Source: Desulfobacteraceae bacterium
GTDB lineage: Bacteria > Desulfobacterota > DSM-4660 > Desulfatiglandales > HGW-15
Length of the DNA stretch: 27,653 bases
Direction: 5' to 3'
NCBI GenBank assembly: GCA_041310455.1
Contig: JBFYXR010000501.1
Location: forward strand, 1 to 27,653
A program made the position numbers and the translations under genes. Positions 64 through 5,911 of this stretch are shown here, one piece after another (position 1 is the first letter of the stretch; every line of letters starts with the position of its first letter). The notes beneath the pieces were generated by a model, which did no database searches, had not been told where the DNA came from, and worked only from the letters and a program-made list of their open reading frames with translations.

Positions 64-1539
64 TTATTTCCGGCAACGCTTATATTTTTCCACCTCATCC
101 TTCATCCAGGAGGGCCAGAACGCATAGGCAATGGGATAGCTGGCGTCGAGGGCCTGCAGAGAGCCTTCTCCGGCGACCGACCTGATGATTTCGGCTGAAT
201 TATATCTGACCTCATCTACTCCAACCAGCTTGGCAACGGCCCTGTTGATCTCATCTTCGCTCTTGTCGTAGGGGTTGCCGTTTTTAAAGGCGCGCTGCAC
301 AGCAAGTTCGTTAAGGCACTCAATGCCCCTGTGCCATTCCTTGAAGGAGGGGAAGAACATCGGGCCATAGGATATCCAGAACTCGATATATTTCGCGCCG
401 GCATTATAGACTACCCAGACAGAGCCCCCTTCGCTTACACTTCCCCTTACAATGCTGTCGTCGCCCATGGCGATATTTTTCCCCTTGAGCAGTGAATCAA
501 TACCTCCGAACTTGAGCCCGACCTCTTTTGTCCTTGTCAACCGCTCGCCTTCCTGAAAGGTTCTTACAGCCTGGGGAAGCTTTATTAGTGCAGGGAAAAG
601 GCTTTTCCCGAGCCCTTCGGCAACACCTACTGTCACGCCCCACCCTGATTCAGGGTTCGGGATTACCAGGTCGGCCCTGGAAATCTTATAGTGCTCTGCA
701 AGCTTTTTGCCGAGTTCCCTCCTGATCTGGAATATCTCCTTTCCCCTGTACAGAGAGGCGACATTGCCGAAATACACACCCTGGAAGGTGTCCGGCAGGA
801 TGGCCTCCTCCATGAGCCTCTTTCTTTCAATCCCTTTGGATGAGCATATGGTCATCTCGGCGCCGTCATACTCGCCCTCTATGAAACCGCCGAGCCTCCT
901 GTGTGAACAGGATTCGGAGCTGGCCACGAAGGTCCTGTCGATTACCCCGTAACAGAATGGTTCGAATGCCAATGAATCGTTCAATGTAATAAGGGAGCAT
1001 TCCTTTCCATCATAGATAAGGGCAGTAAGGGCGAATGTAGCTCGTCCCTTGAGCTTGTTGACCAGCCTGTACCCCGCATCAAAAGAAATGCCGTCCTCTT
1101 CAATATACCTATGCAGGAGCGCCCCGATGATCTCCGTTTTATTGCTGGTCTTGATGACATAGCCGTCTTCCAGCTCCGATCTCAGATCCCCTTCCCTCAT
1201 GAGATAGCCGTCAACGGTTAACACGACCTTATACCTGGAATTCTTGACAGGATACACCTCGATCGGCTCGGCATTATATTTTTCCGCCACGGAGCTCTTA
1301 CCATAGCCTATGTTTCCGATCGCTGCTACAGGCTCAAGGTCCTGGAATATGCCGATCAGCCTGTTGTCTATTACCTCTGCGATCCTGCCGAGACCTTTAT
1401 GGATGTAGATACCCTTTTTTGTCCCTATGGCTATCCCCGTGGTGGCCTTGCCGCGGTGCTGACATGCTCCCGTTGCAAGAAATGCCTTTGTTACCAGCTC
1501 CCTGTCTTCAGGACCATAAATCCCTACAATCCCGTCCAT
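64..1539 (-). CDS. purF: Amidophosphoribosyltransferase (PurF)-like protein with degenerate glutaminase domain and no Fe-S cysteines
   Basis: PurF layout: MDGIVG N-terminus (canonical MCGIVG), QHRG, SESC, VYF, PESG, RTF and PRPP loop GDDSIVRG. Cys1 is Asp, GHxRY is GNIGY and HNG is VDG. RBS AGAGGT lies upstream of the ATG. Confidence 0.85.
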   Translation of the reverse strand: MDGIVGIYGPEDRELVTKAFLATGACQHRGKATTGIAIGTKKGIYIHKGLGRIAEVIDNRLIGIFQDLEPVAAIGNIGYGKSSVAEKYNAEPIEVYPVKNSRYKVVLTVDGYLMREGDLRSELEDGYVIKTSNKTEIIGALLHRYIEEDGISFDAGYRLVNKLKGRATFALTALIYDGKECSLITLNDSLAFEPFCYGVIDRTFVASSESCSHRRLGGFIEGEYDGAEMTICSSKGIERKRLMEEAILPDTFQGVYFGNVASLYRGKEIFQIRRELGKKLAEHYKISRADLVIPNPESGWGVTVGVAEGLGKSLFPALIKLPQAVRTFQEGERLTRTKEVGLKFGGIDSLLKGKNIAMGDDSIVRGSVSEGGSVWVVYNAGAKYIEFWISYGPMFFPSFKEWHRGIECLNELAVQRAFKNGNPYDKSEDEINRAVAKLVGVDEVRYNSAEIIRSVAGEGSLQALDASYPIAYAFWPSWMKDEVEKYKRCRK

Positions 1540-1609
1540 GTTGTTACCTCTGCCTAGAATAATGTTTGTATCTGTTATTTTTTGCTTCAGACCTGCAGTA
1601 ACTTCGGCC

Positions 1610-1704
1610 TATAAAGCCCTCAGCTATCAGCATTCAGCTCACAGCTAATTATTGATATTTTTATTTTTTGCTGACTGCTGACTGCTGATCGCTGACAGCT
1701 GATT
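1610..1704. repeat. Inverted heptamer array (NNNCAGC x4, AT-rich spacer, GCTGANN x5), hairpin-forming intergenic element, copy 1
   Basis: TATAAAGC CCTCAGC TATCAGC ATTCAGC TCACAGC ... GCTGACT GCTGACT GCTGATC GCTGACA GCTGATT. It starts at the carB stop codon, and a related copy lies at 17164-17256. Confidence 0.8.
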
Positions 1705-5297: not shown

Positions 5298-5504
5298 GCA
5301 AACCCTGCCGGTTTTGCCAGACTCTTCTTCGGCAAATCCGGCCGGCTGTGGATACAATTTGTTTCTGTTGCCGCAACAATGATCTTTGCTTTTTCCATGA
5401 CTTCTATTATCCTAAAGGCTATCGATCTGTTGACAGGCCCAGGGGTATCAGAGAAGAAAGAAGGAAAAGGCATTGATATCAGCCTCCACAATGAGACCGG
5501 ATAC
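5298..5504 (+). pseudogene. amtB: C-terminal remnant of ammonium transporter Amt (last TM helix and cytoplasmic tail)
   Basis: In-frame translation ANPAGFARLFFGKSGRLWIQFVSVAATMIFAFSMTSIILKAIDLLTGPGVSEKKEGKGIDISLHNETGY matches the Amt C-terminus (NPxG..GLFFG...QL..Q...ILK..D...GLRV.EEE..G.D.S.H.E.GY). There is an in-frame stop at 5280-5282 and no N-terminal portion. It sits directly upstream of glnB. Confidence 0.8.
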
Positions 5505-5572
5505 GGTCGCCGGCGGGCAGGGATCTGTATCCCGATGGAAGATAATCCAACAGGAAAACAAGGAGAGGAAAC

Positions 5573-5911
5573 ATGAAAAAAATCGAAGCAATAATCAAGT
5601 CGTTTAAGCTGGATGATGTCAAGGAAGGGCTCAATTCAATAGGGGTCAAGGGTCTTACCGTAAGCGAGGTCAAGGGTTTTGGCCGTCAGCGGGGCCACAA
5701 GGAGATATACAGGGGCGCAGAGTATCAGGTTGATTTCGTGCCCAAAATAAAGATTGAAGTTGTAATGGAAGACAAGCTGGTTGCCGAGGCAGTGAAGCTG
5801 ATCAGGGAGAAGGCGATGACAGGTCAGATCGGAGACGGCAAGATATTCATCATCCCGGTGGATGAGGTGATAAGGATCAGGACCGGCGAAAAAGGCGAAG
5901 ATGCCATCTGA
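5573..5911 (+). CDS. glnB: Nitrogen regulatory protein P-II (GlnB/GlnK family)
   Basis: [17 protein letters not shown]-loop YRGAEY with the Tyr51 uridylylation site, GDGKIF, RIRTGE; 112 aa. Confidence 0.97.

Follow-up and report, generated by a model that had tools for sequence, protein, structure and literature searches.

An orphan second carbamoyl-phosphate synthetase subunit and a cysteine-less PurF-like protein as a possible accessory ammonia route in Desulfatiglandales

Bacterial carbamoyl-phosphate synthetases are textbook glutamine-dependent enzymes, vertebrate carbamoyl-phosphate synthetase I (CPS I) is a natural ammonia-only enzyme, and mutants of the amidotransferase PurF that lose Cys1 retain ammonia-dependent activity. 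To our knowledge, the contrary evidence for bacterial synthetases has so far been genetic only and comes from Bacteroides. Here we analyze a 27,653-nt stretch of DNA (the window; contig JBFYXR010000501.1, our C510) from a sediment bacterium (Desulfobacteraceae bacterium; Desulfatiglandales, Thermodesulfobacteriota), a 3.0-Mb metagenome-assembled genome (MAG) with a completeness of 79% (GCA_041310455.1). In this window, whose genes were identified by open-reading-frame listing and family profile scans, a gene for a carbamoyl-phosphate synthetase large subunit stands without carA and is followed by a gene for a PurF-like protein that lacks the glutaminase residues. We call the former carB2 and the latter purF-like. 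We put about an even chance on reading carB2 and purF-like as an accessory cassette that serves as an ammonia route parallel to the glutamine-dependent enzymes, with a deletion in the adjacent ammonium-transporter gene (amt) as a separate event.

The closest described system is that of Bacteroides thetaiotaomicron, which has carAB plus a lone CarB2 (BT3866). Bacteroides carAB mutants are defective only without ammonium, carB2 is important when ammonium is supplied, carA and carB2 are not co-fit (r = -0.02), and Liu et al. (2021) proposed CarB2 as an ammonium-dependent carbamoyl-phosphate synthetase (PMC8121099). Like BT3866, the CarB2 studied here is a full-length orphan synthetase subunit in a genome that also has canonical carAB, and it has a link to nitrogen regulation; unlike BT3866, it is followed by a PurF-like gene. 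E. coli CarB by itself uses ammonia in vitro, according to Trotta (1971) as cited in PMC8121099. With E. coli CarAB (1JDB), CarB2 shares the four-domain large subunit and is identical at the ATP, tunnel, gate and ornithine residues checked, but it has no adjacent carA and carries 63 clade-specific substitutions, clustered at residues 210–285. CPS I, by contrast, retains a fused inactive glutaminase domain, and CarB2 has none. For a later step of pyrimidine synthesis, purified PyrJ of Streptococcus pneumoniae (DUF1846, Spd_0310) forms CTP with ammonia and not with glutamine (bioRxiv 10.1101/2024.09.24.614635). The logic is the same, in that an enzyme of nucleotide synthesis that needs glutamine has a substitute that runs on ammonia, and this genome encodes a homologue with the same putative activity outside the window.

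The rest of the genome determines how the window must be read. On other contigs we found an intact carA (502 bits) followed by a full-length carB1 (contig C432), a canonical purF with Cys1 (520 bits; C368) and two full-length amt genes with a gene for a PII nitrogen regulator behind each (C320 and C326). The contigs that carry carA, carB1 and purF1 belong to this lineage and are no contamination, because their proteins are 85–89% identical to those of a same-genus genome (G001), values that resemble those of the window proteins against the same genome (91% for CarB2, 87% for PurF-like). The carB of the window, which the earlier note on this DNA had taken for the carB of the organism, is actually a second copy, 53% identical to CarB1. 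What that note had seen within the window stands: the carB has a promoter of its own and no carA at either side, its PurF-like neighbor has Asp at the Cys1 position with a retained phosphoribosyl-pyrophosphate (PRPP) loop, and in the divergent unit no more than the final 74 codons of amt precede the genes for PII and GlnD. Where the note implied that the organism lacks carA, canonical purF and amt altogether, it was mistaken. A gene missing from a neighborhood is not a gene missing from a genome, and here all three apparent losses are compensated elsewhere. As an observation in its own right, a fourth PII gene lies on C432 (G000, this genome; L094, positions 408–743, minus strand), divergent from the canonical carA; its product is 67% identical to the PII protein of the window, and both synthetase loci thus have a PII neighbor.

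A second CarB without a partner of its own is widespread. We surveyed 301 genomes of the phylum, each at least 90% complete, searching for carA at an E-value of 1e-30. A CarB2-type protein was found in 113 of them at 72–86% identity, with a clean gap to CarB1-type proteins (at most 56%), and nearly all 113 also encode CarB1. By the same survey carA is present in 288 of the 301 genomes, in a single copy each; no second carA was found in any of them or in any of 31 relatives from the same order. Within these 31, CarB2 (74–91% identity) occurs in 17, this genome counted, and every carA immediately precedes carB1, with purF1 next in line. More than 30 loci of relatives showed no carA beside carB2 except in two distant genomes (G181 and G282), and none of the loci examined held a carA dedicated to CarB2. 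Two CarB proteins per one CarA are the normal state for about a third of the phylum.

Two genomes go further and have CarB2 as their only synthetase (G039, 98% complete; G230, 93% complete). Searches of both found no carA (best model match about 20 bits), no CarB1 and no carbamate kinase, and no amidotransferase gene stands beside their carB2; both encode aspartate carbamoyltransferase and a second transcarbamylase. The two belong to separate genera within a family in which carA, CarB1 and CarB2 are present in the remaining members. Separately, six genomes of another family (f47: G072, G107, G167, G196, G225 and G250; 90–98% complete) yielded neither carA nor any carB, and a further member (G137) has both. 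These bacteria could have an alternative source of carbamoyl phosphate or could be auxotrophs.

CarB2 scores well above the curated family cut-offs (Table 1). It is identical to the E. coli protein at 17 of 17 ATP-site, 10 of 10 carbamate-tunnel and 5 of 5 ornithine-site positions checked, and it keeps the tunnel-gate residues Cys232, Ala251 and Ala314 (gate residues as named in PMC4655335). The nucleotide site is partly changed, with small clade-specific changes there (S948T and T1017P). CarB2 is thus predicted to be a catalytically complete large subunit that has no glutaminase gene of its own. To locate what sets the two types apart, we compared 43 CarB2-type with 25 CarB1-type sequences, scoring positions conserved within each type and different between them. 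Of 63 such positions, 43 fall in the N-terminal carboxyphosphate domain, which receives the ammonia, a density of 10.8 per 100 residues; the C-terminal synthetase domain, its homologue, has 2.9 (p = 6e-7) and the allosteric domain 1.5. Residues 210–285, which flank the gate residues Cys232 and Ala251, hold 18 of the 63. All CarB2 proteins have Gln at the position of E. coli CarB Arg265, which may be a wall residue of the ammonia tunnel. Across the phylum CarB2 is also the more conserved type, with a mean pairwise identity of 78% as against 69% for CarB1. A search of the protein Atlas with CarB2 returned generic CarB clusters only, which came without usable taxa. Direct use of ammonia by CarB2 is plausible, with the chances roughly balanced.

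The PurF-like protein is a more divergent case. It shares with the [4Fe-4S] type of PurF from B. subtilis (1GPH/1AO0) the two-domain layout, the PRPP loop (GDDSIVRGS), the Lys and Arg-Thr-Phe of the flexible loop (IK...RTF) and a PNPES motif, and the 1GPH alignment makes a PurF fold evident. It differs in falling far below the PurF cut-off (350 bits), which the canonical PurF of the same genome exceeds, in being only 27% identical to that protein, in having about 90 C-terminal residues that form a distinct conserved region and in lacking two aligned Fe-S cluster cysteines. The N-terminus reads MDGIVG. In the alignment, Cys1 is replaced by Asp, Arg73 by Gly, Asn101 by Asp and Asp127 by Lys, and the replacements are themselves conserved, the first three in 121 of 121 family members and the Lys in 119 of 121. 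The phosphoribosyltransferase (PRTase) part is the most conserved region of the family, with 55% invariant positions. The family is narrow (73–91% identity among 120 database clusters, labeled 'hypothetical' or 'amidophosphoribosyltransferase'), and in the relatives a canonical PurF is always present alongside it. A PRPP amidotransferase activity of PurF-like that uses only ammonia is less well supported than ammonia use by CarB2; the protein retains its PRPP site beside a glutaminase domain without the nucleophile.

A profile-free search of 1.8 billion representatives added only a few more distant clusters, some with Asp, Lys, Ser or Ala as the first residue. In five of these (P0130, P0136, P0138, P0145 and P0148) Lys, Ser or Ala occupies the Cys1 position and MDG replaces HNGN. 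The Fe-S cysteines are kept in the Ser and Ala clusters (P0136, P0138, P0145 and P0148), and P0130, the Lys cluster, lacks the C-terminal cysteine pair; where Ser is first, it could still serve as a nucleophile. Literature searches yielded no relevant description of an orphan carB in Desulfatiglans or of a PurF paralogue without the cysteine.

The two genes are neighbors, carB2 before purF-like, in at least 12 genomes, and they lie on different large contigs in one (G008). Because carB1 is universally followed by purF1 in this order, the carB2–purF-like arrangement appears to be a copy of that order, whatever it does today. In other families carB2 is followed by a third PurF paralogue (L040, positions 6336–7682 in G021; L041, 573–1919 in G026; L079, 7704–9047 in G223), which is 33–35% identical to canonical PurF, has Cys1 behind a short propeptide and keeps the Fe-S cysteines, with Ser at both the Arg73 and Asn101 positions. 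The contig of the window stops at position 1, just past the PurF-like gene, and the loci of relatives show no conserved downstream partner of purF-like, except in L056. There, in a Desulfatiglandales MAG, a gene for a PyrJ homologue (82% identity) begins 34 nt after purF-like, so that carB2, purF-like and pyrJ-like run in one direction and amt, PII and glnD diverge from them in the other. In the genome studied here the DUF1846 gene (563 bits) lies on C410 and is not adjacent to the pair. DUF1846 occurs in 10 of the 31 relatives, with PurF-like in all 10 and CarB2 in 9, and in none of 15 genomes without a PurF-like gene, counts that are confounded by relatedness since all carriers belong to one family. 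In one relative (G014; L035, positions 6356–9555) carB2 is split over three frames with one stop codon, and purF-like and DUF1846 are split too; the cause could be sequencing errors, the MAG being 72% complete, or a decay that affects all three genes.

Table 1. Features at positions 64–8670 of the window and the evidence for each
Feature	Position	Strand	Evidence
PurF-like paralogue, 491 aa	64–1539	-	TIGR01134 125.5 bits (cut-off 350); class II amidotransferase-like domain without nucleophile, then PRTase domain with PRPP loop
Spacer between carB2 and purF-like, with long hairpin of heptamer arrays	1540–1703	-	RNA fold
carB2, carbamoyl-phosphate synthetase large subunit, 1066 aa	1704–4904	-	NF003671 1512 bits (cut-off 599); TIGR01369 1361 bits (cut-off 1027)
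Sigma70-type promoter of carB2	5040–5068	-	TTGACA-17-TATATT, 11/12 consensus matches
amt remnant: final 74 codons (5283–5504) plus 23-codon read-through to TGA	5283–5576	+	PF00909 27.9 bits
PII nitrogen regulator (GlnB/GlnK type), 112 aa	5573–5911	+	PF00543 109.9 bits (cut-off 25); NF008111 155 bits
glnD, PII uridylyltransferase, 900 aa	5968–8670	+	TIGR01693 633.6 bits (cut-off 519.4)

On the opposite side of carB2, the amt remnant corresponds to positions 338–399 of the 399 in PF00909 and shares 61% identity with the C-terminal end of Amt from the same genome. Its native stop codon is lost, the TGA reached by read-through overlaps the PII start codon, and conserved motifs have drifted (GLRV to GPGV, EEEE to EKKE). 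An intact amt of about 400 codons occupies this locus in six relatives (L027, L035, L054, L056, L062 and L064). The full arrangement, with amt, PII and glnD diverging from carB2 and purF-like, is complete in G004, G014, L056, L062 and L064, and L054 shows amt, carB2 and purF-like before its contig ends. In the same-genus G001 (L047), the 5' half of amt (residues 2–191, cut by the contig end) adjoins carB2. Intergenic DNA of the window near carB2 aligns to G001, and positions 5320–5503 align to the 3' end of amt in G004 and G014. About 416 nt separate carB2 from the remnant, no less than the entire intergenic region measures in the relatives (376–407 nt); this implies that about 1 kb of coding sequence was deleted and the promoter region left in place. 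The junction is real and no assembly artefact, since an independent wetland metagenome yielded a contig of 673 nt that bridges positions 4926–5598 with three differences. None of the other genomes examined has the same deletion.

The loss of amt is therefore a recent, lineage-specific deletion of about 1 kb in one of three amt copies, unrelated to the carB2–purF-like pair; it is a separate event because the pair adjoins an intact amt in six relatives. The losses of carA, of the PurF cysteine and of amt do not vary together, and the fallback of the earlier note, that the observations might be independent, was right for amt. As to free ammonia, the replacement of glutamine-dependent enzymes at the level of the genome is refuted by the intact carA, purF and two amt genes elsewhere and by the lack of co-variation, the very findings that the note had named as decisive against it, whereas a narrower version, an accessory CarB2/PurF-like route, keeps comparative and literature support.

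Both hexamers of the carB2 promoter, which lies 135 nt upstream of the gene, are kept in 11 of 11 aligned upstream regions, with or without an amt gene opposite. This conservation speaks for sigma70-driven expression of carB2 that would be independent of the divergent, nitrogen-regulated unit. The 135-nt leader (4905–5039) contains TCAGGAT-type repeats; in five Desulfatiglandales MAGs, L054, L056, L062, L064 and L065, the promoter is only about 20 nt from the ribosome-binding site. The spacer between carB2 and purF-like is 164 nt long in the window and about 20–130 nt, mostly short, in relatives. Its RNA (1540–1710) folds with -49.4 kcal/mol (z -4.8), and no U tract follows the stem. The heptamer-array hairpin (1610–1704) is absent from most relatives, and a metagenome contig (run X2) skips positions 1542–1703, so the hairpin element resembles an insert that is mobile or variable. 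Run X14, an RNA library, contains contigs with 0–2 differences from carB2, purF-like, the amt remnant and glnB; such contigs are no proof of transcription and give a weak hint of expression.

Several observations weigh against an ammonia-dependent cassette. PurF-like occurs without CarB2 in G005, G013 and G017 (90–92% complete), most CarB2 genes in the phylum stand alone without purF-like, and the DUF1846 carriers are all close kin. The inactive domain of PurF-like has invariant residues of its own (Asp2, Gly78, Asp110 and Lys134), which, together with the low identity to canonical PurF, suggests that the function or ligand of the protein is new and that it is not just an ammonia-only PurF. 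CarB2 keeps its gate residues, so ammonia from CarA could still be accepted, and the absence of carA from G039 and G230 rests on MAGs. Moreover, the genes run in the order carA, carB2, carB1 in G181, a complete genome, and in G282, which fits a CarA that serves both large subunits. That order is also the starting point for an explanation in which CarB1 and CarB2 are both glutamine-dependent isozymes, draw on the one CarA and differ only in regulation, with the purF-like adjacency as a duplicated order unrelated to ammonia. Bacillus, which has arginine-specific and pyrimidine-specific carbamoyl-phosphate synthetases, provides a model for such isozymes. The universal carB1–purF1 order, which makes carB2–purF-like look copied, and the Cys1-bearing PurF paralogue that follows carB2 in L040 and L041 agree with it, as do the retention of gate, ornithine-site and most nucleotide-site residues and the small scale of changes such as S948T and T1017P. 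G039 and G230, however, need carbamoyl phosphate and have CarB2 with no carA found; the type-specific changes in CarB2 are dense in the domain that receives ammonia and sparse in the allosteric domain; and the absence of carA/carB2 co-fitness in Bacteroides (PMC8121099) points the same way. We regard a shared-CarA isozyme as somewhat unlikely.

Other explanations fare less well. The joint loss of carA, PurF glutaminase and Amt by an organism living on free ammonia in an ammonium-rich niche, as put forward in the earlier note, has in its favor that the three features adjoin one another in the window, but with carA, canonical purF and two amt–PII pairs in the same genome, a pair that sits beside intact amt in six relatives and beside at least the amt 5' half in the same genus, and a deletion seen in this lineage only, it is almost certainly wrong. 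A physical complex of CarB2 and PurF-like, in which the dead domain docks at the CarA site or the PRPP-binding domain regulates CarB2, would make sense of an adjacency kept in at least 12 genomes with short spacers, and PRPP is known to activate some pyrimidine-specific synthetases; the occurrence of each protein without the other, PurF-like in G005, G013 and G017 and CarB2 in most of the phylum, and the separation of the two genes in G008 make such a complex highly improbable. CarB2 might instead feed another sink for carbamoyl phosphate, for example HypF-dependent formation of the cyanide ligands in [NiFe] hydrogenases; this phylum is rich in such hydrogenases, and CarB2 is common in it. Carbamoyl phosphate is indeed the HypF substrate (review, PMC6022934), but no hyp genes adjoin carB2 in at least 30 loci examined, and as the sole synthetase found in G039 and G230 CarB2 must serve general needs there, so that a dedicated HypF supply is very unlikely.

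We therefore return to the accessory cassette as an ammonia route. In this model, the two genes mirror the housekeeping order carA, carB1, purF1, and carB2, under its own conserved sigma70 promoter, would be expressed at times of ample ammonium. CarB2 would then most likely make carbamoyl phosphate directly from free ammonia, by analogy with the proposal for Bacteroides CarB2. PurF-like is a candidate ammonia-using counterpart for entry into purine synthesis, the least certain step of the model, and the DUF1846/PyrJ homologue could add a third, at the CTP step. The canonical, glutamine-dependent set would be kept for low-ammonium conditions. Next to the cassette, the deletion in amt left the amt promoter driving glnB and glnD.

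A single ammonia route made up of three enzymes, namely CarB2, the PurF-like protein without Cys1 and the PyrJ homologue, is a tentative proposal that we consider unlikely as it stands. Were it true, the route would bypass all three entry steps of nucleotide synthesis that depend on glutamine, those to carbamoyl phosphate, phosphoribosylamine and CTP, at times of plentiful ammonium and spare energy-limited anaerobes the ATP cost of making glutamine, and the PurF-like family would be the first natural ammonia-only PRPP amidotransferase. More broadly, about a third of the sampled Thermodesulfobacteriota genomes carry a highly conserved second CarB without a partner. The locus thus points to specific candidates for ammonia-dependent enzymes, and it suggests what the family at present mislabeled as amidophosphoribosyltransferase or left as hypothetical may do.

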